Shown here: positions 1,941 to 19,450 of the stretch, piece after piece | Numbering within the stretch: the stretch's first letter is position 1 | Layout: each line of letters opens with the position of its first letter | The notes under the pieces: model-generated | Databases searched by the model: none | Told to the model about the DNA's origin: nothing | What the model saw: the letters and a program-made list of their open reading frames with translations, nothing else | Source of the DNA: a virus | Lineage: Duplodnaviria > Caudoviricetes | DNA: 26,658 nt | IMG/VR virus record: IMGVR_UViG_3300031248_000010 | Coordinates: 1-26,658 of that record | Strand: one strand, 5' to 3' | Translations under genes and position numbers: made by a program

Positions 1941-2746
1941 TGTTCAAGCCGACATTCGCATTGCAGGTCGAGGCCGGAGCCGGAGCCGGCGGTGGCGGCG
2001 GCGGTGCAGGGGCCGGAGCCGGCGGTGGCACGGCGCTCGGCCAGGAGCCGGCGTGGGAGACGACCGTCCCCGCGAAGTTCCGCGAGGGCGGCAAGGCCGA
2101 CGGCGCGATCAATCACGGCGCGATCTACAAGGGCTATTCCGAACTGGAAGGCCAGATGCGCAACGTCGGTAAGCCGCCGGAGAAACCGGACGGCTACAAG
2201 TTCAAGCCGGACGACAAGTTCCCGCTCGACACCAAGTTCTTCGAGGACGTGCGCGGCAAGGCCCACGGCGCCGGCCTCACAGACGCGCAGTTCGAGGTTT
2301 TCACCGGCACTCTGGCCGAGACGGCGACGAACCTCGCCGCCGAGCTGCGCGCTGACCTGCTCGGCACGCAGGAGGCATGCGAAAAGGCCCTGGGCGAGGT
2401 CTGGAAGGACCCGGCGATGGCGGCGAAGAACAGGCAGGCCGCCAATCGCGCCTTCAAGCAACTGTTCGGCGACGACGCCGAAACGCGCGGCGTCATCGGC
2501 AACATGCCCAAGGTCATCATGGCGCTGGCGAAGATCGGTGCGGAAATGAAGGAGGACGATTCCCCGGGCGGCGACAGCTCGGCCGAGTCGGCGCAGTCGC
2601 TCGACTCCGAGATCGACAAGCTGATGCACGACCCGGCCTACGTGAATCCGTTTGCCAAAACGCACAAAGAGGTCAAGGCGAAAGTGGAAAAACTTTTCGC
2701 ACAACGCTACGGCACGGCTCCGGTATCTGGGTCGCGTGTCGCATGA
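1937..2746 (+). CDS. Capsid assembly scaffolding protein
   Basis: Gly/Ala-rich N-terminus, then VPAKF, KGYSELE, PPEKPDGYKF, AHGAGLTDAQF, LAKIGAEMKED, DPAY...HKEV. True start is ATG 1937 (GGAG upstream), not 1325. Confidence 0.85.
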   Translation: MMFKPTFALQVEAGAGAGGGGGGAGAGAGGGTALGQEPAWETTVPAKFREGGKADGAINHGAIYKGYSELEGQMRNVGKPPEKPDGYKFKPDDKFPLDTKFFEDVRGKAHGAGLTDAQFEVFTGTLAETATNLAAELRADLLGTQEACEKALGEVWKDPAMAAKNRQAANRAFKQLFGDDAETRGVIGNMPKVIMALAKIGAEMKEDDSPGGDSSAESAQSLDSEIDKLMHDPAYVNPFAKTHKEVKAKVEKLFAQRYGTAPVSGSRVA

Positions 2747-3225
2747 ATCGCCTTTTCTGGGCCAAGGTAGCCGTTGGCGACGAGGACGCCTGCTGGCCGT
2801 GGCTGATGGCGAAAGACCCGAATGGCTACGGGCACACTTCCGAAGATGGCGGACAACGCAAAGCGCATCGCGTGGCTTGGGAGAGGATGAACGGAAAGAT
2901 TCCAGACGATATGCACGTATGCCACTGCTGCGACAACCGTGCCTGCTGCAATCCTGCGCATCTATTTCTAGGTTCCGCGCTCACGAACATGCGCGACAAG
3001 ATCGCCAAGGGTCGCGCGCGCTACGTAGTGCCTCGCGGAGAACGCAACGGCCTTGCGAAGATCGCAGACGTCGAGATTCCGGTGATTCGGACGATGCACT
3101 TAAACGGTATGCGCCAGACCGCGATTGCGCGCCTGTACGGCGTGCATCCGTCCACGGTGAATAGCATCGTGCGCGGCAAGCACCGCACTGGCACTGGCTT
3201 TCTCATGATTTCCGGCACAGCGTAG
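2743..3225 (+). CDS. HNH homing endonuclease with C-terminal HTH-like DNA-binding domain
   Basis: FWAKV...CWPW...GYG...AHRVAW...VCHCCDNRACCNPAHLFLG...NMRD, then GERNGLAK and QTAIARLYGVHPSTVNSI. ATGA overlap at 2743-2746. Confidence 0.92.
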   Translation: MNRLFWAKVAVGDEDACWPWLMAKDPNGYGHTSEDGGQRKAHRVAWERMNGKIPDDMHVCHCCDNRACCNPAHLFLGSALTNMRDKIAKGRARYVVPRGERNGLAKIADVEIPVIRTMHLNGMRQTAIARLYGVHPSTVNSIVRGKHRTGTGFLMISGTA

Positions 3226-4888: not shown

Positions 4889-5326
4889 ATGACCACTTTC
4901 TACAGCGACCTCCGTACCAACGACCGGGCCTCGCCGCCGGTGAAAACCGACGTGACGCAGCTCGGCGCGCGCATCCGCTACGCCGTCGCCAGCTATACCG
5001 TCCCGGCGTCCAGCATCCCGACGATCGCGGACACGATCGAGTTGTTCTACCTGCCGAAGGGCGCGCGCATCCTGCCGGGCAGCAAGTTCTTCAACTCGGC
5101 GGGCGCGGCCTCGCAGACCATCGCAGTCGGCGACTCCGGCACGGCCGGGCGCTACCTTGCGGCCACGTCTGTCACGGCGGCTGGCTCGAACCTCATGGAG
5201 GCGCATCTGGCCTCCGGCGCGGTGTACGAGGAGCCGGCCGGCGCCATGATCCTGGCCACGGTGGGCGGAGCGACCCTGACGGCCGCCGCCGTCCTGACAT
5301 TCCACTTCAAGTACGCGCTCGACTGA
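4889..5326 (+). CDS. Capsid cement/decoration protein (Bbp16-like jelly roll)
   Basis: Directly after the capsid gene, AAGGAG RBS. DTIELFYLPKGARIL and TIAVGDSGTAGRYLAA are typical of this family. Confidence 0.8.
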   Translation: MTTFYSDLRTNDRASPPVKTDVTQLGARIRYAVASYTVPASSIPTIADTIELFYLPKGARILPGSKFFNSAGAASQTIAVGDSGTAGRYLAATSVTAAGSNLMEAHLASGAVYEEPAGAMILATVGGATLTAAAVLTFHFKYALD

Positions 5327-5354
5327 TCTTCCTCCCTGCGGTCGGGTGTAAATT

Positions 5355-5386
5355 AGGGCCGTCCTTCGGGGCGGCCCTTTTCTTTT
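5355..5386 (+). terminator. Rho-independent terminator
   Basis: AGGGCCGTCC-TTCG-GGGCGGCCCT followed by TTTCTTTT. Confidence 0.9.
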
Positions 5387-5398
5387 AGGAAACGGAAA

Positions 5399-5605
5399 AT
5401 GTCAGTTCTCAGCGCAGCAGAGCGAAAAAAACTCAAGCCGGAGCAGTTCGGTCTGCCCGGCGAGCGGAAATATCCGATGCCGGATCGCGCTCATGCCATT
5501 AATGCCAAGGCGCGCGCATCACAGGCAGCGGACGCCGGCCGGATCTCGGAGGCGACGGAGGAGAAGATTATCGCCAAGGCCAATCGGGTGCTCAAACGCC
5601 GCTGA
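5399..5605 (+). CDS. Small basic protein, DUF6582-like
   Basis: LSAAERKKLKPEQFGLPGERKYPMPDRAHAINAKAR motif; family name recalled, not searched. Confidence 0.7.
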   Translation: MSVLSAAERKKLKPEQFGLPGERKYPMPDRAHAINAKARASQAADAGRISEATEEKIIAKANRVLKRR

Positions 5606-5648
5606 GGCTGTAGGATTGGGCGCTATCGGCACCTGATGGGGGCGGCGC

Positions 5649-6224
5649 ATGGCTTCGGTGGTCACTATCTGTACGGATGCGCTGCTGCGCCTTGGCGACC
5701 GCCCGATCAACACGCTGGACGAGCAGACTGACCGCGCGCGGTTGTGCAGCAACCTGTTCGCCCAGGCCCGCGACTTCGTCATCCGGCGCCACCTGTGGAA
5801 TTCCTGCATCAAGCGCGTGGCACTGGCGCCGCTCGCGGCCGCGCCGGCCTTCGAATGGGACTTCCAGTTCCTGCTGCCGGCTGACTGCCTGCGCGTACTC
5901 TCGCTCGGCGAGAACCGCACCTTCACGGACTACCGCGTCGAGGGCAGCGAAAGCGGCCGCGTCATCCTCTGCGACGAAAACCCGCTCTACCTTCGCTACG
6001 TCTGGCGCAACGAGGATCCGGCTACATGGGACCCCGGCCTGATCGAAGCCGTGACGGCGCGCATGACGGTGCTGCTGGCGTACCCGATCACGAAGTCCGC
6101 CGCCGTCCGTGATGCGATGGAGTCCAGTTCCGAGCGAGAACAGAAGGTGTCGCGCGCGATCGACGGTCAGGAGGATGTTACCGACGAGTCCGTCAGCTCG
6201 ACGTTCATCGGCGTCCGCGCTTGA
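5649..6224 (+). CDS. Tail tubular protein A / head-tail adaptor (T7 gp11-like)
   Basis: VTICTDALLRLG..PI, ARLC..LF..ARD...R.HLWN..IKRVAL, LPADCLRVL, WDPGLIEAV. Confidence 0.9.
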   Translation: MASVVTICTDALLRLGDRPINTLDEQTDRARLCSNLFAQARDFVIRRHLWNSCIKRVALAPLAAAPAFEWDFQFLLPADCLRVLSLGENRTFTDYRVEGSESGRVILCDENPLYLRYVWRNEDPATWDPGLIEAVTARMTVLLAYPITKSAAVRDAMESSSEREQKVSRAIDGQEDVTDESVSSTFIGVRA

Positions 6225-8404
6225 GCAAAATCCGGGCGATCCAGACCAATTTTTCGTCCGGCGAGTTGTCGCCGAAGGTCTTTGGGCGCACCGATATTCA
6301 GCGGTACTACAGCGGCGTCAAGACGTGCTCCGGCGGGTTGCCGTTGAAACAGGGCGGCGTCATTCGGTCGCCAGGCACGATCTACGTCAAGGACGCCAAG
6401 GATCAGGACGATCGCGGAGCGATTTTCCCGTTCATCTTCGACAAGGTGACGGCCTACGTCGTTGAGCTTGGCAGCACGATCAGGTTCTACTACGGTTCCG
6501 GCGCCAATATCGGCCCAGTGCTCGACGGCGGTGGCGCGCACTACGCGATCGCAAATCCGTACACGCTCGACCAACTCGCCGCGATCCGATACGCGCAGAA
6601 AGCCAACACGATGCTGCTCGCGCACGGCTCGGTGCATCCGCAGCGGCTCCAGCGCTTCGCCAATGCGCTGTGGGTTATCGGCAACTTCCCGGTGTCGGTC
6701 TACCCGTCTGCGGAATTCGGCACGAAGCCGGCGGCGAACATCGCGCTGTCGGCAATGACAGGCGCCGGCATCGTGGTCACGGCCAGCGCCGCATCGTTCC
6801 TGGCGTCCGATGTGGGCCGGCAGATCGAGGCCGGCTCGGGGCTGCTCACCATCACGGCGTTCACCGACACCACACACGTTACCGGCACCTCGGTCCGTGA
6901 CTTCGACTCGCTCGCCTACGTGTCGCAGACCTGGACGCTGACCGACTCGCCGCAAACGAAGCTCACGCCGAGCGCGGTCGGCACCACCGGCGCGACCATC
7001 ACGCTCACGGCCACGGCTGACGCCTTCCGGGTCGGTGACATCGGCAAGTACGTGAAGATCAACGACGGTATCGTTGAAATCACTGTCTTTACCAACGCGC
7101 TGAACGTCAACGGCATCGTGCGCAAAGTGTTGTCGGTGGCCACGGCCGCCGAAGCCGGCGCCTGGACGCTCGAGGAAAAATCGTGGTCAACGGCGCGCGG
7201 TTTCCCGCAGTCCGTTGGCGTCTATCAGCAGCGCGTCGTGTACGGCGGCACGACCAGCCAGCCGAACACGATCTGGGGGTCCGCGATCGGCGACACGACC
7301 GACTTTGCCATCGGCGTCAATGCCGACGATGCCTTCCAGTTCACACTGGATTCCGGCACCGCCGACCTGGTGCAACATCTGGAATCGTTGCGCGCGTTGA
7401 TCGCGCTCACCTCGTCTGCCGAGCACAGTTTGAAGGGGCAGGGCAGCGCCTTGTCGTCCGTGTCGGTGGACGCTAACGCGCACACGTTCTACGGATCCGG
7501 CGACGTGAAGCCGACGAAGATCGGGTATGAATTGCTGTTCGCCACCTTCACCGGCAAGCAACTCCGCAGTTATTCCTACGATTTCACGACGGACAGCTAC
7601 CAGAGCGCGGACCTGTCCGAGCTTTCGGACCATCTGCTGTTGCCCGGCCTACGCCGCATGGCCTACGCGAAGGAGCCATATCAGGTTGTTTGGGGCGTGA
7701 TGGCGGACGGCACACTGGCCTCACTGACCTACGACGCCACCAGCGACGTGCAGATGCGCGGGTGGGCGAGCCAGCCGGCGAACGGGGCCTATCTCGACGT
7801 GTGCTCGGTCCCGGGCGCGACCGGCGACCAGGTCTGGTTCCGCACGAAGCGCAGCATCAATGGCGCGAACAAGTGGTTCATCGAGTACCAGAGCTACGAC
7901 GTGAACACGCACGCGGCCTTCGTCAAAACGGCTGGTCTGCCGGCCTCTAGCATCGTCACCGGAATCGCGCATCTGATCGGGCAGACCGTTGACATCCTTC
8001 TCGACGGCGTGGCGCAGGTACAGCAGGTTGCCGCAAATCCTCTCAACTTCGTGCGCGCCGCCGACACGCGCATCGAGATCGGAGTGCCGTACCTGTCTCG
8101 CATCGTGCCGCTCAAGATCGAGTTCCAGCAGGACGGCAGCTCGCAGGGCCGCGCGGCGAGCGTGAACGAGGTCGTGCTGCGCGTCATCGAGAGCCGGGGC
8201 CTCAAGGTCAATGGCCAGGTTCTGCGCGGCCGCGATTTTGGCGTCGCGGTACTCGACAAGCCGCCGGTCATCCGGAACGAGGACCTGCAACTGACGACGC
8301 TCGGCTGGAGCTTCGCGCAGAATGAGGATCTGGAAGAAATTACGCAGGAGTTGCCGTACTTCTTTCACCTGCTGTCGGTTGTTCGACACGTCACGATCAA
8401 TTAG
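6221..8404 (+). CDS. Tail tubular protein B / nozzle (T7 gp12-like)
   Basis: IQTNFSSGELSP...GRTD, YAQKANTMLLAH, WSTARGFPQSVGVYQQRVVYGGT, IWGSAIGD, GIAHLIGQTVDILLDG. TTG start overlaps the upstream TGA. Confidence 0.92.
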   Translation: MSKIRAIQTNFSSGELSPKVFGRTDIQRYYSGVKTCSGGLPLKQGGVIRSPGTIYVKDAKDQDDRGAIFPFIFDKVTAYVVELGSTIRFYYGSGANIGPVLDGGGAHYAIANPYTLDQLAAIRYAQKANTMLLAHGSVHPQRLQRFANALWVIGNFPVSVYPSAEFGTKPAANIALSAMTGAGIVVTASAASFLASDVGRQIEAGSGLLTITAFTDTTHVTGTSVRDFDSLAYVSQTWTLTDSPQTKLTPSAVGTTGATITLTATADAFRVGDIGKYVKINDGIVEITVFTNALNVNGIVRKVLSVATAAEAGAWTLEEKSWSTARGFPQSVGVYQQRVVYGGTTSQPNTIWGSAIGDTTDFAIGVNADDAFQFTLDSGTADLVQHLESLRALIALTSSAEHSLKGQGSALSSVSVDANAHTFYGSGDVKPTKIGYELLFATFTGKQLRSYSYDFTTDSYQSADLSELSDHLLLPGLRRMAYAKEPYQVVWGVMADGTLASLTYDATSDVQMRGWASQPANGAYLDVCSVPGATGDQVWFRTKRSINGANKWFIEYQSYDVNTHAAFVKTAGLPASSIVTGIAHLIGQTVDILLDGVAQVQQVAANPLNFVRAADTRIEIGVPYLSRIVPLKIEFQQDGSSQGRAASVNEVVLRVIESRGLKVNGQVLRGRDFGVAVLDKPPVIRNEDLQLTTLGWSFAQNEDLEEITQELPYFFHLLSVVRHVTIN

Positions 8405-8416
8405 GCGGACCTGAAC

Positions 8417-8848
8417 ATGGCTGGCATGGGCGGCAGCGGATATCTCGGGATGATCGGCGGCATCGTTAAGGCCGTCGGCAACCGCTACGACGCCTACGAG
8501 CAACAGAAGGAACTTAAATACCTCGCGTCCTTGCGCGAGCGCTCCGCCGAGGACGCGCTGGCGATGGGTCAGATCAAGGCCAAACTGGTGCGCACCGCTG
8601 GCCGCCGCTTCCTGGGCGAGACGCGCGCCGACTACGCGGCCTCCGGCGTCATGGTGGACACTGGCAGCACGGCGGCCGTGGAGAGCGACATCAGCCGCAA
8701 CGTCGAGCGCGACGCACTGCTGACGATCTACCAGAGTCAGGTCGATGCGGCGGCGCTGCGCGCTGAGGCGAAACAACTCCGGCGCAATGCGACCAATACG
8801 CAGGTCAAGGCGACGTTCGAGAACATCGCCACGGTTCTGGGATCCTGA
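8417..8848 (+). CDS. Internal virion (ejection) protein 1, T7 gp14-like
   Basis: Hydrophobic Gly-rich N-terminus, helical body, and the RADYAASGVMVDTGS motif. Confidence 0.8.
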   Translation: MAGMGGSGYLGMIGGIVKAVGNRYDAYEQQKELKYLASLRERSAEDALAMGQIKAKLVRTAGRRFLGETRADYAASGVMVDTGSTAAVESDISRNVERDALLTIYQSQVDAAALRAEAKQLRRNATNTQVKATFENIATVLGS

Positions 8849-8849
8849 C

Positions 8850-10805
8850 ATGGCCTCCATCAAGCTCGGCAACTACGGCAACTACGTCCCCGAGGGGACC
8901 AGCCCGACGGCGAGGGTTCAGCCGGGTGTGCGGGTGGGCGAGGGATTGCAGGCGTTGGGCGATGCGCTGATCCGCAAGGGACAGCAGAAAGAGGCGGAGC
9001 GCAAACAGGCGCTCGACGCGCAGGCCACCGTCGCGCGCGCCAACTACGATTCCTCGCTGAATCAGCTCCAGACCGACCTGCTCGACAAGGAGGCCAAGGG
9101 CGAGATCACGGCGGACCAGCTCGACGCCGCCTTCAAGGACGAGGCGCATATCCGGCGCGAGCAACTTCTCGGAGCTATTCCGGAGGACTCGCGCGACAAG
9201 TACCGGCCCTTTTTCGACATTTCCACGATCAAGGCGACCGACGAATTCCTGACCGCACAGCGCGGGCGCATCCACGAGCGCCGGTCCGGCGCGAATCAGG
9301 AGGTCATGCAGGCATCGCTCGACCAGGCGCGCAAGGATCCACTGACCGCGATCCAGACCGTTGACATCACGGTGGACGGCAACAAGGACCTCTACAAAAA
9401 TCCTGACGAGACGAAGCGCGCCTTCCGCGATGCGGCCTGGACCACGAACGTCACCAGCCAAATCGAGGGCGCGCAGCGCATTGACGACATGCGCAAACTC
9501 AAGAACGCGCTGAACGACGACAAGCAGTACCCGGGTCTTGAGGGCGTCAGCCGCACGAAGCTCATGGCGCACGCCGACGCCAGGATCCGCGAACTGAAAG
9601 CCACCTTCGACGCCGACGAGCGCGGCACGCGCGCGCAGGCCGACTTCAACGCGAAGATGATCGCAGACCGCTCGGCGGATCCAGCCGCCTTCGTCCCAGG
9701 CGAGCGCGAGCAGTACGACAAATACCTTGCCGCGCTGCCTGACAACGTGCCGAACAAGAAAAAGGCGCAGCTCGCGCTGTCGATGTCCACCGATCTGAAA
9801 GCGATGGCGCAGATGCGCTCCGCCGAGCGCGACAAGATCGTGAGCGACGCGCAGCAAGCCATCGGCGCCGCCGGCACCGTTCCGGCGCGCGTCGAGGCTA
9901 TCCAGCGCTACGAAATCCTCAACGCCGCGACGGACCGCTTCAACAAGCAGATCGCCGACAATCCGGTGCGCATGTGGGAGGCGCAGACCGGCGAATCGTG
10001 GCCAACCTGGGACGCGCAGGCGCCCGCTGCCGAGCAGATGCGCGCGAATGTGGACCGCGCGGCCGACGCGGCTGGCCGGACCGGCGTGAATCCAGGCCTC
10101 GTGCGGCCGGAGGCATCGAAGGCCGTCGCCGTGGCGCTCAAAAGCATGGAACCCGGCGAAGCCGCCAAGTTTTTCTCGGACCTCACCTCTCCGGATCCGG
10201 TTACAGGTCACACCGTTCCGCAGGAAATGGTGGACGCCACCATCGCCACGATCGGCCGCGACGATTCCGTGGTAGCGAGCGCGATGCAGTACGGCGTGCA
10301 CAACGCGCGCGTGAACGGCACCGGCGAATTTATTGCGCCGAGGATCCTGCGCGGCGCGCGCGACATCGAGGCCGGCAACGTCAAGGTCAACTCGGAGGAA
10401 TTCGATAAGGCCTTCGACCGCGTGGCCGGCAACGCCTACTCCGGTTTCCCGGACGCGCGCCGCCGCGACATGGACGCGGCGAAGGCCTACTGGGCGACGC
10501 TGAACGACACCGACAAGAAAGCCGACAAGCGCAACGGCATGGAGTACGCCACCCAGGCCGTGCTCGGTGCGAAACAGACGATCAACGGGCAGTCGGTGTT
10601 CGCGCCGGTCGGCATGGACGGGGCCGACTTCACCTCTATGTTCCACGCGGAACTTAGCAAGCAGCTCAAGGCGCGCGGGTGGGACGACAACGAGATCGAG
10701 GCGGCCAACGCGACCGCCAAGCCCTTCAAGGCTGGCTGGTCGCGCTACGGGATCATCTACAACGGTGCCGTGGTGCGTGACCTGGCGATCGACGTGGGGC
10801 GCTGA
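8850..10805 (+). CDS. Internal virion (ejection) protein 2, gp15 position, 651 aa
   Basis: All-helical, Cys-free, N-terminal GEGLQALGDAL motif, position in the operon. Start is ATG 8850, right after the upstream stop. Confidence 0.75.
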   Translation: MASIKLGNYGNYVPEGTSPTARVQPGVRVGEGLQALGDALIRKGQQKEAERKQALDAQATVARANYDSSLNQLQTDLLDKEAKGEITADQLDAAFKDEAHIRREQLLGAIPEDSRDKYRPFFDISTIKATDEFLTAQRGRIHERRSGANQEVMQASLDQARKDPLTAIQTVDITVDGNKDLYKNPDETKRAFRDAAWTTNVTSQIEGAQRIDDMRKLKNALNDDKQYPGLEGVSRTKLMAHADARIRELKATFDADERGTRAQADFNAKMIADRSADPAAFVPGEREQYDKYLAALPDNVPNKKKAQLALSMSTDLKAMAQMRSAERDKIVSDAQQAIGAAGTVPARVEAIQRYEILNAATDRFNKQIADNPVRMWEAQTGESWPTWDAQAPAAEQMRANVDRAADAAGRTGVNPGLVRPEASKAVAVALKSMEPGEAAKFFSDLTSPDPVTGHTVPQEMVDATIATIGRDDSVVASAMQYGVHNARVNGTGEFIAPRILRGARDIEAGNVKVNSEEFDKAFDRVAGNAYSGFPDARRRDMDAAKAYWATLNDTDKKADKRNGMEYATQAVLGAKQTINGQSVFAPVGMDGADFTSMFHAELSKQLKARGWDDNEIEAANATAKPFKAGWSRYGIIYNGAVVRDLAIDVGR

Positions 10806-12727
10806 TGTACCCGGAAATCACGCTCGAGCAGGCCCGGCAACAGCCCGGCGACCTGCCGGCCTGGAACAACGCAGGCGAGGCCATCGCGCGCGGCATCTAC
10901 GAGGGCGCGTCTATCCTCGGCGAGGTCGGCAGCTCCGTGGTCGCTGAGGCGCTACCAGCCGGCGGCCAGGGAAAGACCGACTGGCGCCAATGGTGGGACG
11001 AGAACATCACCGCCCCGGCCACGGCCAGCCGGCAGAAGTCTCAGGAGCGCGCCATCACCTATGGCGGCGCCAGCAACACGCTCCACGACATCGCCAGGAT
11101 TGGCTCGGAGGCTATTTTCGGCCCTGCGACGGTAGCGGCGGCCGAGACTGCCATCCAGGGCGCGATGGCCGTGGACCAGGGCAAGAGCGGCGGCGAGGCG
11201 GCGGCGATCGGCGTGGTACGCGGCGTCGGGACCGGCCTGCTGGCCGCTGTTCCGGTCGTGGCGCCAATCCTGCGGGGCTTCGGCCCGGCCATTGTGCAGC
11301 GCATCATGAGCGGGGCGGCCGGGTCCATCCTGGGCGGCGTAGCGCTTGCCGGCGCCGACAAGGCCACGCTGGCGACCTTGGGATACGACAAGGAGGCCGC
11401 CAGGACCGCCGTGCTGTCCGGTGACTCCATCATGGCCAACGGCGTGCTCGGCGTGTTGTTCGGCCTCCTGGCGCACGGCAGGGCCGCCCTGACGGCCCGG
11501 AAGGTCGGGCTGCCGCTGTCGGTCGTGGATGACGCCATGAGCGTGTCCCTGCGCGACGTGGGGCGGCAGGCGGCGCAGGCAGGCGCCAAGACCCCGCTCG
11601 AGGCCGCGAAGCGGCTGGACGAGTTCAACGGGCGCCTGGACGCGACGACTGAGGGCGCTGTCCCGGACGGCAAGGACGGCCTGGTACAGCCGGACGAAGC
11701 GCTGGCGCGCGCGAACAAGGCCGACGTGTCGCCGCCGACCGTGGAGGCTGCCGCCAAGGCGGCGGAAGCGACGGCCGTGGGCGATGCGATCACGCCGGAG
11801 GAGCTGGCGGCGGAGTACCCGCAGGTCGGGATGGGAAAGCTGGCCAAGGAGCACGGCGCGAGCGTGCGCGCCATGGCTGCCGAACCGTTGCCGAAGCCCC
11901 CGAAGGAAACCGTGCCGGCCAGTACCGCGCTGGCTGAAAAGGCGCTCAAGGACCTGCGCCAGAACATCGTCAAGTTGGGCGGAATCGACCAGGCCGAGAT
12001 CCGCGACATCACCGGCGAGGGCAATGCAACGAGGGCCGGCGGTTGGACTCGGCGGCTGTTCACGAAAAGCGGCGTCGGACTGGACACGCTGCGCGAGCGG
12101 CTGGTCGAAATGGGCTACCTGCCGCACGACACCACCGATGTCACCGGCGACGCCGAGCGGATCCGCGAGCTGGTGCGCGCCGCCGTTGAGGGCCGCGCCG
12201 CAGATGTGATGCCGCCGCAGACGGCGATGGAGCACGCGCAACTACTCGCCGAGGAGCGCGCCAAAGAGGTCGGCATCGAGGACTTCGACCCAGATGCGAT
12301 GGCGCAGGCGTACCACGACTACGCGCAGGAGGGGCATCCGGCCGGGCCGGCTGAACCGGCGCGCCTGACCGCGCCCGAAGCGGTCGCCGTGGCGGAAGTG
12401 GAACAGGCGATGCGCAAGGACGAGGCTGCCGTCGAAGCGGCCGCGATCAAACACGGTGACGACGACGTTGCCTTCATGGCAGAGGTTCGGAGGATCAATG
12501 GCAAAGCAACAGGAAACGAAGGCGCAGCGGCTGCTACGACTGGCGAAACTGTACCGCCAGCACAAGCGGCCTTCCCCAAAAACCTGACGATTCCGGACGC
12601 TGCGGGCAACCCGGTCAACGCCAACGAGCACATCGCGGCGCTGCAAGCCGAAGCTGCTCGAGACGTGACGCCGGAACTTGAGGCCGTGCGCCAGTGCATC
12701 CTGGCGAAGTTGGCAGGAGCGCTCTGA
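10805..12727 (+). CDS. Internal virion (ejection) protein 3, with membrane-inserting Gly/Ala segments, 640 aa
   Basis: Hydrophobic stretches GVGTGLLAAVPVVAPIL, GAAGSILGGVALAGA and GVLGVLFGLLA. TGATG coupling at both ends. Confidence 0.75.
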   Translation: MYPEITLEQARQQPGDLPAWNNAGEAIARGIYEGASILGEVGSSVVAEALPAGGQGKTDWRQWWDENITAPATASRQKSQERAITYGGASNTLHDIARIGSEAIFGPATVAAAETAIQGAMAVDQGKSGGEAAAIGVVRGVGTGLLAAVPVVAPILRGFGPAIVQRIMSGAAGSILGGVALAGADKATLATLGYDKEAARTAVLSGDSIMANGVLGVLFGLLAHGRAALTARKVGLPLSVVDDAMSVSLRDVGRQAAQAGAKTPLEAAKRLDEFNGRLDATTEGAVPDGKDGLVQPDEALARANKADVSPPTVEAAAKAAEATAVGDAITPEELAAEYPQVGMGKLAKEHGASVRAMAAEPLPKPPKETVPASTALAEKALKDLRQNIVKLGGIDQAEIRDITGEGNATRAGGWTRRLFTKSGVGLDTLRERLVEMGYLPHDTTDVTGDAERIRELVRAAVEGRAADVMPPQTAMEHAQLLAEERAKEVGIEDFDPDAMAQAYHDYAQEGHPAGPAEPARLTAPEAVAVAEVEQAMRKDEAAVEAAAIKHGDDDVAFMAEVRRINGKATGNEGAAAATTGETVPPAQAAFPKNLTIPDAAGNPVNANEHIAALQAEAARDVTPELEAVRQCILAKLAGAL

Positions 12728-15267
12728 TGGCCGCCTTCGACAAATGCTTCCAGGAAACGCTCGGTGCGGATCTGACGCCGGAGCAACTACGCGACCGGGC
12801 CGCCGGATTCATGCGGGCCTTCAACAAGGCGCGCGACGCCGGCCTCGGCAAGGCTGAGGCGCTGTCGCAGGCAGTCAAGGAGGGCGCCTTCGAGGTCCGG
12901 AAGGAGTCAATCCGCAAGATTCTGGCGGCTCAGAACGACGCGGCCGTGCGGGTCGAGATCGCGCAGTTCATCGAGCGCGGCCGCGCCGAGTTCGGAGGCA
13001 TGGGCGCCTTCCTCAAGAAGCTCTCGCAGGACGTGGGCGGCAAGAGCAACACCACGGCGATGACCACGATCGCGGAAGGAGTCGCGCAGATGCACGGCGC
13101 CGTGGTCGAGCAGGCGCTGCGCGCCACCGACAACCGCAAACTGCTGCGAATCTTCGAGGACAAGGAACAGACGCGCGAGCTGGTGCGCGCGATCCTGGGC
13201 GAGAACGTCGGCAACCCGGACATCGCAGCGATCGGCAAGACCTTCCGCGAGGTGAACGAGTCGCTGCGCGTGCGATTCAACGCCAATGGCGGCGGCATCG
13301 TGAAGATGGAAAACTGGATCCCGCAGAGCCACGACGCGGCGCGGATGCTCCGCGCCGGCGCCGACAAATGGGTCGCCTTCACCTCGCGCCTCATGGACCG
13401 TCGCAAGATGCTGGCGAAAGACGGCGCGATCATGGACGACATGGAACTGGAGGAATTCCTGCACCGCTCCTACGTCACCCTGAGCGAGGGCGGCGACCTG
13501 AAACAGGACATCCCGGGCGAGCACTCGTTCAGCGCGCGCGGGTCGGTGGAGCGCCAGCTTCACTTCCTGGGCGCCGATTCCTGGATGAAGTACCACGCCG
13601 AGTTCGGCGGGGCGAACCTGTACGACATCCTGCGCTCGCACATCAAGCGGATGGCCAACGACATCGGCATCATCGAAACGCTCGGCAGCAAACCGGGCGA
13701 GACGATCCGCGAGGTCGCCAACGCGGAGGCGGCCAGATTGAACGAGCGGGAAGCCAGCGACTTCGAGCGCAGTTCATTTGCCGCGCAAAAGGCCTACGCG
13801 AACCTGCTCTACGACTACACGGCTGGCAACATTGCGCACGAGCCGCTGCCGGACTGGCGCTTCGAGTTCAAGGTCGGCGACAAGACGCGGACCGTTGACC
13901 TGGCGCACGCGGCGGACATGGGTTTCAACTTCTTCCGCGCGGTCAACGTGCTGAAACTCGGCATGGCTGTGTTCTCGTCGCTGCCGGATCCGGCGTTTAT
14001 GACGGCGGCGGCATCCTTCTGGAACGTGTCCAAGGCCGACCTGTGGCTGAACCTCACGCGACGGATGCTCAACTTCGGCGACAAGGACCGCATCTGGCTT
14101 GAGAACGCCGGGCTGGCGACGGACATGCTGCGCTCGGCCGGCGATCGCATCGTCGGTGAATCGACGCGCGATATGTTCGTCGGCGCGAATCAGAAGGTGC
14201 TCCGCCTCACCGGGCTACGCGCGTGGTCGCAGGCGATGAAGGACACGTTCACGGCCACGATCTCGAACACCGTCGGCCGCATGGTGTCCAAGTTCGACCT
14301 CGCGGCCGTGCCGAAGGCCGACCGGAAGCTGCTCGATTCCTACGGCATCAACGACCAGACTTGGGCGGTCTGGAAGCTGGCGCAGCTCGAGCGGTGGGGC
14401 AGCGCCGGGAACATGCTCACGCCGCGCGCGATCCTCGGGATCCCGGACAGTGCGCTATCCAAATTGGCGCTGGCCTCCGGCAAGAGCGTGGCCGACCTGC
14501 GCGGCTCGGCGGCTTCGACGCTGGCCGGCATGCTGGTGCACGAGTCGGATGCCGCGATCAACGAGCCGACCTCCGGCCAGCGCGCCGTGATCCAGCGGGC
14601 CAAAAACGCGGGACCGGGCGCGAGCTGGATCGTCAATGCCCGTCTCCAGTTCATGTCCTATCCGATCAGCGTGGCGCTGACGCAGGGACGGCGTTTCATC
14701 GCCTCCGACAACAAATGGGAGTACGCCGCTTGGGCCTTCGGCGTCTCCACGGTCCTCGGCGGTCTATCCGTGCAGATCAAGAATCTCGCGCGCGGCCGCG
14801 ACATGCAGGAAATGGTCACGCCTGACGGCCTGCCGAACGGCAAATTTGTCGCGGCCTCGATCCTCGCGGGCGGCGGCTTGGGTCACTACGCCAACCTGGT
14901 GTCCGGGTTCGAGGAACAGCACGCGGCGCCGGTAGAAATCCTGCTCGGGCCTACCGGCGGATCGCTCAACAAACTCCAGAACATCATGGCCGACGTTGTG
15001 GACGGCAAACCGACCGACGCCGCCGACAAGTTGACCGAGATCCTGCCCGAGTACGTGCCTGGTGCTAACCTGCCGTGGACAGCGCCGCTGTTCAAGCACT
15101 ACGTCATGGGAACGCTCCACGAAATGAACAACCCGGGCTTCATGGAACGGCAGGAAGAAAAACTGCGCAAGCGGACCGGGCAGGAATTGTGGATGGGCGC
15201 GGGCACTGGCGACTTCGTCCAGCGCGCTCCGGAGACGGCCGTCGCGCCGGTGCCGAAGGGGCAATGA
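12727..15267 (+). CDS. Internal virion (ejection) protein 4, resembling the C-terminal part of T7 gp16, 846 aa
   Basis: RFNANGGGI..MENWIPQSHD, RQLHF...SWMKYHAEFG, LQFMSYP, AGGGLG.Y, LLGPTG, VPGANL. AGGAG RBS before ATG 12727. Confidence 0.8.
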   Translation: MAAFDKCFQETLGADLTPEQLRDRAAGFMRAFNKARDAGLGKAEALSQAVKEGAFEVRKESIRKILAAQNDAAVRVEIAQFIERGRAEFGGMGAFLKKLSQDVGGKSNTTAMTTIAEGVAQMHGAVVEQALRATDNRKLLRIFEDKEQTRELVRAILGENVGNPDIAAIGKTFREVNESLRVRFNANGGGIVKMENWIPQSHDAARMLRAGADKWVAFTSRLMDRRKMLAKDGAIMDDMELEEFLHRSYVTLSEGGDLKQDIPGEHSFSARGSVERQLHFLGADSWMKYHAEFGGANLYDILRSHIKRMANDIGIIETLGSKPGETIREVANAEAARLNEREASDFERSSFAAQKAYANLLYDYTAGNIAHEPLPDWRFEFKVGDKTRTVDLAHAADMGFNFFRAVNVLKLGMAVFSSLPDPAFMTAAASFWNVSKADLWLNLTRRMLNFGDKDRIWLENAGLATDMLRSAGDRIVGESTRDMFVGANQKVLRLTGLRAWSQAMKDTFTATISNTVGRMVSKFDLAAVPKADRKLLDSYGINDQTWAVWKLAQLERWGSAGNMLTPRAILGIPDSALSKLALASGKSVADLRGSAASTLAGMLVHESDAAINEPTSGQRAVIQRAKNAGPGASWIVNARLQFMSYPISVALTQGRRFIASDNKWEYAAWAFGVSTVLGGLSVQIKNLARGRDMQEMVTPDGLPNGKFVAASILAGGGLGHYANLVSGFEEQHAAPVEILLGPTGGSLNKLQNIMADVVDGKPTDAADKLTEILPEYVPGANLPWTAPLFKHYVMGTLHEMNNPGFMERQEEKLRKRTGQELWMGAGTGDFVQRAPETAVAPVPKGQ

Positions 15268-15268
15268 C

Positions 15269-15622
15269 ATGACGCTGAAAACCATCGAGGACCTGGAGCG
15301 GTTGGAAAAGCGCGTGATGCAGGTCGCCGGGCAGGAGACGGAGCTGCTGCTTGACCGCGTCTGCACACCGGGCGCCGTGGACGCCGCCGTCAGCGACGAG
15401 GCGATGATTGTCCGCCAGAAAAACTACAAGAAGAACGTGGCGAACACCTACCTGTTGTGCGAGCGGATCCTGCGTTACATCGTGCTGAACAAGACGCTCG
15501 GCAAACGCAACCTCGAGGGCATGGACGAGATCAACGCCGAGATCGAGCGTGCGCAGCGCAAAGCCACGGAGGGCGTAACCGGCGCCAAAGCGCGGTTGAA
15601 GCTGGTCGGCGGCCAGGGCTGA
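15269..15622 (+). CDS. Probable terminase small subunit
   Basis: 117-aa helical protein immediately upstream of the large terminase; the call is mainly positional. Confidence 0.5.
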   Translation: MTLKTIEDLERLEKRVMQVAGQETELLLDRVCTPGAVDAAVSDEAMIVRQKNYKKNVANTYLLCERILRYIVLNKTLGKRNLEGMDEINAEIERAQRKATEGVTGAKARLKLVGGQG

Positions 15623-15629
15623 TCCGCCG

Positions 15630-17222
15630 GTGCGGGCGTCGTTCCCGACCTTCTTCCAGATCTGGGCCGACCGAAAGGGCTGGAAGGTCCCGGATTTCCA
15701 CTTCCTGATCGCGGACTGGATGGAGCAGCGCCGCCACAGCAAGAAGCGTGTCGGTGTGCTCCGCGTGTTCCGGGGCGCCGCCAAATCGACGCTGGCCGCC
15801 ATCAACGAGGCCCACGAGTTCTACTGCGACGCGCGGCACCGCGTGCTGATCCAGTCCTCGGACGACAAGACGGCGCGCAAGATGTCGCGCGACTGCAAGC
15901 ATGTCCTGCGCCGGCATCCGCTTTGCGATGGCCTGCTCCCAGACCGCGACGTATCCGGCGACCAATTCTGGGTGCTCGGCCACGATGACCCGCGCAATCC
16001 GTCCATGAACGCCCAAGGCGTCATGTCGAACGTCACTTCGAGCCGCGCCAACAAGGTGCTGTTCGATGACGTGGAAGTGCCGAAGAACATCGTGACCAAA
16101 GAGGCGCGCGAATCGCTGCGCGCCCGCATCGGCGACGCCACGCACATCCTGGTGCCGACCGGGCGCAAGGAATACATCGGCACGCCGCACACGCACGACT
16201 CCCTTTACGACGAGCTGGAGCGGGATGGCGCGGACTGCCTGACGATCCAACTTTTCGCGCACAACCATCGTGAGGAGAAGGCCTCGCAGCTCACGAAACT
16301 GGCGATCCCCTGGGCGATCGAGCCGGCTGACCTGTACGTGTTCAACGGCAAACTGTTGCTGGACGTGCACGCCTACGCCATCAAGGGCGATCACCTCGAG
16401 TTCAAGGAGCCGCAGACCGGCATCGTGGACGTGTACGGCGGCAACGTGTGGCCGGCGCGCTTTGACCGCGAGGAGGTCGCCTTCCGCCGCGCCGAGTGCC
16501 GGACGCAAAACGAGTGGGACTCGCAATACCTGCTCCGCTCCAGGCCGCTGCACGAAGTCCGCCTGAACCCGGACCGCATCACCATCTACGATGAGGAGCC
16601 GGAGTTCGGGACCGCGAACGGCGTGCCGACCTGCCGCATCGGCGCGCACCGGATCGTGGGCGTGCGCTGTTACTGGGACGTGGCGCTCGGCAAGGTGAGG
16701 GGAGACATTTCATCGTGCTCCGTGGTATTCGAATCCGATCACGGCCACCTGTTCTGGCATCGCTGTCGTGGCCTGTACGGCGAACTGGACGATCAGTGCA
16801 CCGAGCTGCGCGACCTGGTGCAGCCGCTGCGAGTGCCGCGCGTGACCGTCGAAACCAACGGCGTCGGCGGCTTCGTCCCGGCCGTGCTCAAGAAAGTGCT
16901 GAACGGGATCAGTGCGGTACGCGAGAACAACGTGTCCGAGAACAAGGTGGTGCGCATCGCCAGGGCGATCGAGCCGCCGCTATCTGGTGCCATGCTGCAC
17001 GCTCATCGTTCGGTCAAGGACTCCGGCGCTTTCCAGCAGATGCGCGACTGGCATCCGCTCGCCGACGGCGTGGACGACCATCTGGATTCCTTCGCCGGAG
17101 CCATCCTGGAGCGACCTGCTAGGATTCCTCGGGAGGGCGAGCCGGTGGCTGGTGGGCCGGGTCCGTGGCACGCTCACGGATCGAGTTACGATGTCGGCCT
17201 AGATTTTAGGGGACGAACATGA
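15630..17222 (+). CDS. terL: Terminase large subunit
   Basis: Walker A-like FRGAAKST, Walker B VLFDDVE, coupling motif IGTP, nuclease motifs YWDVALG, VETNG and DDHLDS. Confidence 0.93.
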   Translation: MRASFPTFFQIWADRKGWKVPDFHFLIADWMEQRRHSKKRVGVLRVFRGAAKSTLAAINEAHEFYCDARHRVLIQSSDDKTARKMSRDCKHVLRRHPLCDGLLPDRDVSGDQFWVLGHDDPRNPSMNAQGVMSNVTSSRANKVLFDDVEVPKNIVTKEARESLRARIGDATHILVPTGRKEYIGTPHTHDSLYDELERDGADCLTIQLFAHNHREEKASQLTKLAIPWAIEPADLYVFNGKLLLDVHAYAIKGDHLEFKEPQTGIVDVYGGNVWPARFDREEVAFRRAECRTQNEWDSQYLLRSRPLHEVRLNPDRITIYDEEPEFGTANGVPTCRIGAHRIVGVRCYWDVALGKVRGDISSCSVVFESDHGHLFWHRCRGLYGELDDQCTELRDLVQPLRVPRVTVETNGVGGFVPAVLKKVLNGISAVRENNVSENKVVRIARAIEPPLSGAMLHAHRSVKDSGAFQQMRDWHPLADGVDDHLDSFAGAILERPARIPREGEPVAGGPGPWHAHGSSYDVGLDFRGRT

Positions 17223-19450
17223 CCGTTTCAGCGGCGCCTAACTTTAATCTCTCAACCGGCAACGGCGTCACGACCGTTTTCTCCTTCGGGTTCGGCATCC
17301 TCGACGCCAGCCACCTCAAGGTCTATTTGGCGGGCGTACTCCAAAGCGCCGGATACACGGTCGCCGGAGTCGGTGCCACCAGCGGCGGTACTGTGGCCTT
17401 CACGGTCGCCCCCGCGAATGGTGTCGCAGTCCTTTTGAAGCGAAGCGTCCCTCGCACGCGCACGACGGATTTCATCACCGACGGTGACTTCACCGCTGAC
17501 GATATCGACAACGATCAGGACCTGCAAACGATGCTGATTCAGGACGCATCGGCTAACGCAGATCGCGCTATCAAGGTGCCGGAGAGTGGGGAGCTTTTGG
17601 ATTTACCTGTCGCGGCTACACGAGCCAATAAGGCGTTGTTGTTCGACGCTACTGGGGCACCCACCGTCGGTTCCGGGATCATCTTTTCCGGCGCCGGCAC
17701 CATCGCGGTAACGAATGTCGCGGCGCTGAAAGCGCTGTTGGTCGCCAATCTCAGCGACGGGCAAATTGTCAGCACGCTCGGCTACAACACGGCCGCCATC
17801 GGCGGCGGCGCCCGCTATCGCTGGGATGCGGCGCTCGCGGCCGCGCCGGACGACGTTTATTATTTTCAGCTCAACGCCGGTGGCGTTGGCCGCTTCGTGC
17901 TGCTCCATAGCGGCACCATCACGCTCAAGCAAGGCGGTTGCAAAGGTGACGATGCCACAGACGATGCGGCCAGGTACGCCGCCGTGCTCGCAGCGGCCCC
18001 CGCCTACAGCGTCATTGACGCCACCGATGGCACCTACCGATTGACGGCAGGCGCGCGCATTGCGAACGTCGGCGTGAAAATGCGCGGCGGCAAGTTCAGG
18101 CTGGACAACGACGGTCAGCAATTTTTGTTCGTGGTCGTTCCGAGCGATTACTGCACGTTCGAAAAATGTCGCTTTACCGGTAGCGGCGTCACCGGCACCG
18201 CACCGACGCCGAAGTATCAGGGCGGAATTCACGGCGGAAACTCTGACCATCCGGCACCGCTTAACGTCACGCCAGCCAACGGCGTTACCGTCAAGGACTG
18301 CATCTTCGAAAACCTTACCGTCGGCATCTGGTCAGGCGGCGCAGCAGCGCAAGCCGTTCCGGTCGGCTGGTCCGTAGTGGACAACCAGTTCACCAACATC
18401 GTTGGCTTCGCCGGACAATCGGAGGGCTACGGCACGCTGTTCACGCCATGCAGCCGCAGCGTGATTCGTGGCAACAAATACAAGACGATCAGGCGTCACG
18501 CAATCTACCTGGCCTCGGAGTCGAGTTTCAACGGCGTGGACGGCAACGTCATCGACGGCGTGGACAACATCGCCATCCAATCGAATACTGGAGTTGCGCA
18601 GAACTACGCGGACCAGAACAGCTATACCAACAACATCATCCGTGGTTTCACTCGCAGCATCGCCTACGGCTATCGTTCGTCTGTGGGCATCGGCCTCTAC
18701 GGCAAGCACAGCAACAGTCTGGTCCAAAACAACTCAATCTTTGGCGCGCTCGATACCGGCATCGACTGCGCCGGGGAACTGGCCGGCAGCAACTACGCCG
18801 AATACATGGACGTGCTCGGCAACAAGATCATCATGGATGCGACGGCCACCGACGGGGCAATCAGGGCTGATGGGCTGTTCAGCGGGAAGATCAGCGGGAA
18901 CAAGGCGGTCCTGCAAAGCAACATCTATGGCGTGATCGTCACGTCCACGAATAGCGTCTCAACCAAGCTGCTAGATGTTTCCGGTAACACCTTCGACACG
19001 ACGGCGCCGGCAGCGATCGCGTTCAGGCTGGCGCTCGTGGCGTCGCGGACGATCCACATTTACCGCAACAAACTGAATGGCTTTGCCGCCGGCTACAGCA
19101 ATCGGCTGACAGACACGAGCACGGCCGGAATCAGAAAAACCGATTTGAATGACGACGCCGGCTTCTATGGCGCCGACGCGGATGTGACGCACAACGCCCA
19201 AGGCACCATTGCTCAGACGGATTGCCCGAAGATCCGGCACGCTGCGGTGCTCACGGCGGCGCGATTAGTTACTCTGGCGAACACCAACGTTCCGCACGGA
19301 GCCGAAGTCACGATCATGCGGACTGGCGCCGGAGCATTCAGCCTAAACGTATCGGATGGCGGCACCATCAAGGGCTTAGCCACGGGACAATGGGGTCGCT
19401 TCGTTTGGAATGGCGGCGGGTGGGAATTGGGCGGCTTCGGGTCGCTATGA
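17219..19450 (+). CDS. Tailspike / depolymerase: T7 gp17-type N-terminal anchor, parallel beta-helix, C-terminal beta domain
   Basis: GNGVTTVFSFGF...LKVY...YTV..GG.V.F..AP...LLKR anchor; TLGY...GGGA.Y.WD domain; GCKGDDATDDA helix cap; many (I/V)xxN repeats. Confidence 0.88.
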   Translation: MTVSAAPNFNLSTGNGVTTVFSFGFGILDASHLKVYLAGVLQSAGYTVAGVGATSGGTVAFTVAPANGVAVLLKRSVPRTRTTDFITDGDFTADDIDNDQDLQTMLIQDASANADRAIKVPESGELLDLPVAATRANKALLFDATGAPTVGSGIIFSGAGTIAVTNVAALKALLVANLSDGQIVSTLGYNTAAIGGGARYRWDAALAAAPDDVYYFQLNAGGVGRFVLLHSGTITLKQGGCKGDDATDDAARYAAVLAAAPAYSVIDATDGTYRLTAGARIANVGVKMRGGKFRLDNDGQQFLFVVVPSDYCTFEKCRFTGSGVTGTAPTPKYQGGIHGGNSDHPAPLNVTPANGVTVKDCIFENLTVGIWSGGAAAQAVPVGWSVVDNQFTNIVGFAGQSEGYGTLFTPCSRSVIRGNKYKTIRRHAIYLASESSFNGVDGNVIDGVDNIAIQSNTGVAQNYADQNSYTNNIIRGFTRSIAYGYRSSVGIGLYGKHSNSLVQNNSIFGALDTGIDCAGELAGSNYAEYMDVLGNKIIMDATATDGAIRADGLFSGKISGNKAVLQSNIYGVIVTSTNSVSTKLLDVSGNTFDTTAPAAIAFRLALVASRTIHIYRNKLNGFAAGYSNRLTDTSTAGIRKTDLNDDAGFYGADADVTHNAQGTIAQTDCPKIRHAAVLTAARLVTLANTNVPHGAEVTIMRTGAGAFSLNVSDGGTIKGLATGQWGRFVWNGGGWELGGFGSL

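Follow-up and report, generated by a model that had tools for sequence, protein, structure and literature searches.

A terminal cysteine pair kept in split ejection proteins of epsilon15-type phages and lost in fused homologues

In cyanophage A4 (Anabaena phage A-4L), four proteins build a pre-ejectosome in which gp27 inserts its C-terminal helix into gp26, and in the mature virion a disulfide joins gp27 Cys1715 to gp26 Cys5, an arrangement worded as 'further stabilized' in the accessible parts of the report (PMC12002296). For T7 gp16, the portion of the source available to us places transmembrane helix (TMH) region I at residues 243–410, TMH II at residues 1119–1290 and a cytoplasmic hub in gp16-C, and states that the protein can refold from a partly unfolded state (PMC8954989). 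Cysteine depletion has been described for the ejection proteins of N4-like phages, again in a source seen in part (PMC11445570). Here we analyse the ejection genes of a 26,658-nucleotide stretch of viral DNA (IMG/VR record IMGVR_UViG_3300031248_000010, positions 1 to 26,658; hereafter the window), a linear record of 26.7 kb from an uncultured short-tailed phage, which holds genes for capsid, adaptor, nozzle, ejection, terminase and fibre proteins. Its third and fourth ejection proteins, the equivalents of epsilon15 gp16 and gp17, carry one cysteine each, close to the end of the former and the start of the latter. This pair is retained wherever the two genes are separate and both in view, and is lost where they are fused. 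Family-wide comparison makes it very probable that the two terminal cysteines form a disulfide.

A preliminary description of the window, made from its letters alone, had listed four ejection genes and singled out the two cysteines; both the genes and the cysteine positions were confirmed:

8417..8848, plus strand: gp14-like small ejection protein, 143 amino acids (aa), without cysteine; phrog_418 internal virion protein, E 2.9e-22; Pfam T7_gp14, E 0.0014, below the cut-off.
8850..10805, plus strand: gp15-like ejection protein, 651 aa, without cysteine; matched by a profile of 35 relatives' gp15-like proteins with the window left out, E 1.6e-19.
10805..12727, plus strand: epsilon15 gp16-like ejection protein, 640 aa; N-terminal hydrophobic region, variable middle and C-terminal cysteine-bearing putative helix.
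12695..12697 (TGC), plus strand: Cys631 of the gp16-like protein, tenth residue from the C-terminus and the only cysteine of its 640 aa.
12716..12729, plus strand: GGAG ribosome-binding site (12716–12719) and TGATG stop-start overlap (12725–12729), read from the sequence.
12727..15267, plus strand: epsilon15 gp17-like ejection protein, 846 aa; phrog_684, E 1.2e-144; phiV10, 28% identity, E 2e-75.
12745..12747 (TGC), plus strand: Cys7 of the gp17-like protein, the only cysteine of its 846 aa, invariant among 52 aligned stand-alone homologues.

The gene order (tail nozzle, gp14, gp15, gp16, gp17) is that of epsilon15/phiV10-type phages, and by homology the ejection genes are the gp14, gp15, gp16 and gp17 equivalents of that set, whose products would be packaged in the virion core and ejected. 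The 846-aa protein (PHROG 684) matches 112 of 50,697 phage records, including phiV10, BcepC6B, VP5 and Pelagibacter phages, with identities of 23–29% among the 60 matches listed. Links of the 640-aa protein are weak but syntenic (leave-one-out gp16-like profile, E 2.6e-6; YeP5 homologue, E 1.5e-7 by BLASTP), and PHROG and Pfam searches with the 651-aa gp15-like protein gave no match. Epsilon15 gp16/gp17 and their equivalents in phiV10, BcepC6B, VP5, Ab31 and Pelagibacter phages are homologous to the window's proteins and have the same gene order and the same terminal cysteine pair. The window itself stands on a distant branch, at about 28% identity; unlike epsilon15, phiV10 and several relatives, it has no gp13-type acetyltransferase gene before gp14 (8404–8417, nozzle to gp14), and, unlike the phages just named, it has its terminase after gp17. 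Its gp16-like and gp17-like genes are separate and lie in different frames. A longer GTG start of the gp17-like gene at 12694 was rejected, because homologues begin at the ATG and GGAG precedes that ATG. Around both cysteines the residue pattern suggests amphipathic helices.

Co-conservation was scored at 384 loci in three sets, from which three copies of the window's own locus, five cyanophage records, T7 and BPP-1 were excluded; the sets are redundant, and 81 loci are phiV10-like. Both cysteines were found in 202 of the 224 loci of set 1 plus 2 on inspection (the others being 4 fused, 9 cut and 7 without a partner gene in view); in 58 of the 80 loci of set 2 plus 6 with the partner beyond an insert (9 without a partner in view, 7 cut); and in 58 of the 80 genome loci of set 3 plus 3 on inspection (6 fused, 6 cut, 7 without a partner in view). 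Over all 384 loci, both terminal cysteines are therefore present in 329/329 split pairs in view, with 10 loci fused and 45 uninformative; the co-conservation that the preliminary description had proposed as a check thus came out without exception. At four loci with inserts (L238, L239, L255 and L274), position and terminal pattern served to identify the partner, with no profile match, which makes these calls partly circular. When set 1 was clustered at 30% identity, 12/12 representatives had both cysteines. Among 50 gp16-like C-terminal 60-mers, the cysteine is the sole invariant column. In phiV10 the gp16 equivalent ends in VACFLRG and the gp17 equivalent starts with MRQECIQ; BcepC6B, VP5 and epsilon15 follow the same pattern, and in phiV10, BcepC6B and VP5 each terminal cysteine is the sole one of its protein. 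In L364, one of the loci where no partner was in view, the gp17-like gene is shortened at its N-terminal end and has no cysteine.

An independent sample, the best 150 of 3140 cluster representatives that match the gp17-like protein at E<=0.001, gave the same picture. Of its 144 stand-alone proteins, 140 have a cysteine within the first 25 residues (87 of the 140 at position 5); among the four exceptions, three are truncated at the start by 6–8 residues and in the fourth an extension precedes Cys44. Cysteine is otherwise nearly absent from the family, with 6 others in 120,852 residues of the gp17-like representatives and 0 in 23,655 residues of the bodies of 37 full gp16-like proteins. The pair is also kept across inserts of 0.1–4.3 kb between the two genes (an HNH gene, spacers and other genes), which indicates that selection acts on the proteins and rules out a DNA-level constraint imposed by the gene overlap. 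The TGATG overlap, presented earlier as coupling the two genes, is itself not conserved, with spacers and inserts in relatives, and is not required for the pair. In nine loci (L022, L238, L239, L243, L249, L255, L274, L301 and L367) the gp16-like/gp17-like junction is an insertion hot spot that holds HNH, tail-fibre-like and unknown-function genes over 0.4–4.3 kb. The gp17-like gene is frameshifted in L096 and broken by an insertion in L099; both retain the N-terminal cysteine.

Fused homologues lack the pair. At four set 1 loci, single proteins of 2304–2424 aa begin as gp16-like, end as gp17-like and have no cysteine, and across the 10 fused loci a junction cysteine was found in none (0/10). 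The 'fused' label in set 3 required an absent junction cysteine; the other intact set 3 loci had a separate upstream gene or were inspected, so that no fused protein with a cysteine is hidden among them. The five N-extended proteins among the best 150 representatives also have no junction cysteine (0/5). A search for longer proteins returned 21 (one identical to that of L136), all matching both halves; none has a junction cysteine and 20 have no cysteine at all. When 261 gp17 domains were placed in a tree with FastTree, the 19 fused rows fell into 9 lineages, all nested within split forms, and the cysteine was lost in 9/9 independent fused/split pairs (sign test, p 0.004; three start-truncated rows left out), in agreement with the loss on fusion that the preliminary description had named as a second check. 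A single fusion event, suggested by a narrow sample, was ruled out when wider trees and an approximately unbiased (AU) test gave 7 and then 9 lineages; the AU test rejected a single fused clade with p-AU 1.5e-41, on 23 rows chosen after the tree was seen. Read-through artefacts were ruled out as the origin of the fusions, because they would retain the cysteines. In the largest fused clade, the two cysteine-equivalent positions lie about 7 residues apart, as judged by eye. By parsimony over these sequences, the two-gene, two-cysteine state is ancestral in the family, because the alternative needs many splits, each gaining two cysteines at the same places.

Elsewhere in the window, five other virion and packaging proteins have 27 cysteines in 2510 aa, from which about 24 would be expected in the 2280 aa of the ejection proteins. 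The chance of one cysteine in the last 10 residues of one protein and one in the first 10 of the next is about 4e-5, a post hoc figure, and chance was ruled out as the source of the pair because it is conserved family-wide. Cysteine depletion is ordinary for ejection proteins, whereas the terminal placement of the pair is not: T7 gp15 and gp16 have zero cysteines, and in the N4-like virion RNA polymerase and other Schitoviridae ejection proteins cysteine is suppressed as in the window's family. The available text on Schitoviridae treats a few terminal cysteines as annotation errors and describes no paired terminal cysteines (PMC11445570). The gp14 proteins of T7 and phiV10 have a Cys2, which the window's gp14-like protein lacks.

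A4 shares this layout. Both A4 and the window have four ejection proteins, the last two with a single cysteine apiece, C-terminal in the third protein and N-terminal in the fourth; A-4L gp27 and gp26 have exactly these two cysteines, and PDB 9K3A chain A is A4 gp26. The proteins differ in size, with 1717 + 1114 aa in A4 and 640 + 846 aa in the window. All 5/5 cyanophages of the A-4L group (L052, L228, L229, L230 and L231) have the terminal pair, the C-terminal cysteine 2–3 residues from the end and the N-terminal one at position 5–8; one of these phages has two further cysteines in its gp26-like protein. Several records annotate the last two ejection proteins of this group as tail fibre or ParB-like nuclease. 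A faint match at A4 gp26 214–251 was not above decoys, and searches of PDB sequences gave nothing significant, with no match better than E 0.76; A4 is an analogy or very remote homologue of the window's pair.

The A4 report, which concerns a single phage, gives the bond a stabilising role and, in its accessible parts, contains no conservation, fusion or redox analysis (PMC12002296). Our search of full-text literature, which left subscription journals and older epsilon15 work outside, returned that paper alone for a disulfide between ejection proteins, and no paper describing the cysteine pair in epsilon15-type phages. In the crassvirus study, as far as its text was available, disulfides are in the tail and vertex only (PMC10172136), and the portion seen of the Xacm4-11 preprint does not mention disulfides. 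What is new here is thus the family-wide rule and the repeated loss on fusion in the epsilon15/T7-gp16 lineage, which we did not find in print; the type of bond itself has been seen once, in A4.

Comparison with T7 gp16 (one 1318-aa chain with an N-terminal transglycosylase and no cysteine, against two chains in the window) gave weak collinear matches between Cys-poor proteins. Two further features of the window bear on it:

11198..11296, plus strand: hydrophobic stretch, gp16-like residues 132–164, a predicted inner-membrane segment; Kyte-Doolittle peak 1.8.
14647..14658, plus strand: QF-x-S motif, gp17-like residues 641–644, common to T7 gp16 1095–1151; Q641 and F642 nearly invariant.

Against T7 gp16, the gp17 profile gives a match at residues 1095–1151 (E 1e-4 among 502 sequences, best decoy 0.15, 56 columns) and a collinear sub-threshold match at residues 810–902; hhalign with T7 gp16 gave a probability of 27. 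The gp16-like N-terminal profile of the family aligns weakly to T7 gp16 215–430, the TMH I region, with E 3e-4 among about two dozen sequences, where T7 gp15 also matched at E 0.0025. On these alignments the gp17-like protein likely corresponds to the part of T7 gp16 that runs from about residue 480 to its C-terminus, and the junction would fall near T7 gp16 residues 430–490, on the cytoplasmic side. Searches of Pfam and PHROG gave no match for a lytic transglycosylase in the 640-aa protein, and some relatives carry one internally. The preliminary description had seen here a gp16 equivalent split in two; the weak collinear mapping agrees with two pieces. A fresh split of a T7-like gene is not supported, because the fusions are nested within an ancestral two-gene state. 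BPP-1 Bbp10 showed no link to the gp16-like or gp17-like profiles.

We propose the following course of events. Two separate genes each provide one terminal cysteine, as observed here. By analogy with A4, the last helix of the first protein would dock on the second while the core assembles in the reducing cytoplasm. Because a disulfide is unlikely to form in the cytoplasm, where the core is built, the stage under selection would be the free virion or ejection, and the bond may form once the particle has left the cell. Ejection would partly unfold both proteins and abolish the docking surface, after which only the bond might hold them in order through the tail and the oxidising periplasm. If the T7 mapping holds, the junction would end on the cytoplasmic side of the inner membrane; reduction of the bond on arrival is chemically expected and would probably be tolerated rather than needed. 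On gene fusion, the backbone replaces the pair and both cysteines are lost, again as observed here. On balance, we consider that the main role of the bond would be to keep the two halves one chain during threading, in place of a peptide bond.

Several findings weigh against this proposal. The bond in this family is deduced from comparing sequences, and conservation cannot separate threading from plain stabilisation. No significant sequence link connects the window to A4 gp26 or gp27 (hhalign probability 8.8 and 0.4; E 5.8 among decoys), and the T7 mapping consists of short, weak matches, the window's 640-aa protein scoring no better than E 0.1 against the N-terminal profile. In some fused lineages the loss extends beyond the cysteines to the junction segment as a whole. 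Four reduced elements (L030, L035, L038 and L350) keep the gp17-like cysteine without an adjoining gp16-like gene; possible explanations are prophage decay, or satellites for which a helper supplies the gp16-like partner. Finally, the pair is also retained at prophage-like loci whose genomes bear the titles Desulfovibrio, Pseudodesulfovibrio and Salidesulfovibrio, and for such anaerobes the oxidant is less obvious.

Four other explanations can be weighed against the same observations. The bond could be real but static, only locking the packed core in the mature virion with no part in threading; the A4 wording (PMC12002296) and the stabilisation of other virion parts by disulfides, such as the crassvirus tail (PMC10172136, each in its available parts), agree with this. 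A stabilising bond could sit anywhere on the interface, however, and here it would always run tail-to-head, at the place where fusion puts a peptide bond, while all other cysteines have been purged. The consistent orientation and the replacement by backbone on fusion favour chain continuity in threading over simple stabilisation, which leaves a static lock unlikely. The preliminary description had gone further, to a redox-cleavable linker whose purpose is the release of one half in the cytoplasm. The mapping of the junction after TMH I of T7 gp16, in the cytoplasmic part, is in its favour, as are the ADP-ribosyltransferase domains about 130 residues ahead of the terminal cysteine in L108 and L114 and the dominance and ancestry of the split state, which suggest some benefit over fusion. 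Yet nine lineages are fused, and single chains of this kind are found with ParB, ADP-ribosyltransferase, RadC or acetyltransferase cargo, which makes cytoplasmic release dispensable in at least some lineages; some split members also have a periplasm-acting transglycosylase in the same middle region, which makes any assignment of topology tentative. Release as the purpose is thus quite improbable in our judgement. Of the earlier model, a probable disulfide between two ejection-protein halves is supported by the co-conserved pair, the weak T7 mapping, its loss on fusion and the A4 precedent, and cytoplasmic release is not essential family-wide.

Formation of the bond only after ejection, by DsbA-type enzymes of the host periplasm that would clamp the proteins in the assembled channel, would explain why phages of anaerobes retain the pair, and the N4-like study, in its available text, attributes cysteine avoidance in ejection proteins to periplasmic disulfide catalysts (PMC11445570). 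Such a clamp is very unlikely, given that the A4 bond is already present in the mature virion (PMC12002296, accessible parts) and that the T7 mapping places the junction on the cytoplasmic side. A different cysteine chemistry is imaginable, in which the two cysteines form a common metal site or the chains are joined through a thioester or by ligation, because a metal ion could be held between the lone thiols of the two chains and the bond here is itself deduced. We regard it as very unlikely: no conserved His, Asp or further Cys lies near the C-terminal cysteine, the cysteine is never the first or last residue, there is no intein-length insert and no Pfam match, and A4 shows a disulfide (PMC12002296, same limits). 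The threading role thus accounts best for a pair that is kept tail-to-head and given up on fusion.

If threading is the main role, epsilon15 gp16 and gp17 would be recast as one T7 gp16-like chain in two pieces and a structural footnote on A4 would become a family-wide rule; a natural route for hanging cargo on an ejected protein is also suggested. This bears on the long-standing question of how several large ejection proteins leave the capsid in order through a narrow tail. A pair that is kept when the genes are split and dropped when they are fused offers a two-codon handle in the classic model phage epsilon15 and in the editable A4. A tentative and rather doubtful extension is that podophages generally use terminal cysteine pairs as a reversible substitute for a peptide bond, with separate ejection proteins that would be oxidised into a single thread in the virion, drawn through the tail in sequence and parted by the host cytoplasm. 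Were such linkage general, it would let phages swap cargo modules freely and release them on arrival, and the epsilon15-type family would show the switch between disulfide and peptide link nine times.

The middle region of gp16-like proteins holds interchangeable cargo in relatives (L108, L114, L142, L059, L063, L002, P0006, P0012 and P0023): ADP-ribosyltransferase, ddrB-like ParB, RadC-like JAB, transglycosylase and lysozyme domains. The window's own middle region has no named domain. In the reduced elements L030, L035 and L038 (about 5100–8600) and L350 (3351–6466), a gp14-like gene stands directly before the gp17-like gene, with no gp15-like or gp16-like gene.

The closest relatives are P0002 and P0003, whose partners did not come into view: a metagenome scan returned only two copies, both at 100%, and the window's protein, used alone as the query, matched no viral contigs. 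In the ESM Atlas the 846-aa protein falls among unnamed phage clusters only, the nearest named ones being LPD39 (55% of members) and LPD38 (63%), which serve as a lead only; the 640-aa protein has a low-confidence model there. Around the ejection genes, the window has a 480-aa open reading frame without a family match at 36–1478 and an HNH endonuclease ahead of the capsid region at 2377–3225. Between the gp17-like and tail fibre genes lie a 117-aa gene and the large terminase (15269–17222), with similar genes after the gp17-like gene in L249 and L301, followed at 17219–19450 by a beta-helix tail fibre with a T7-type N-terminus.

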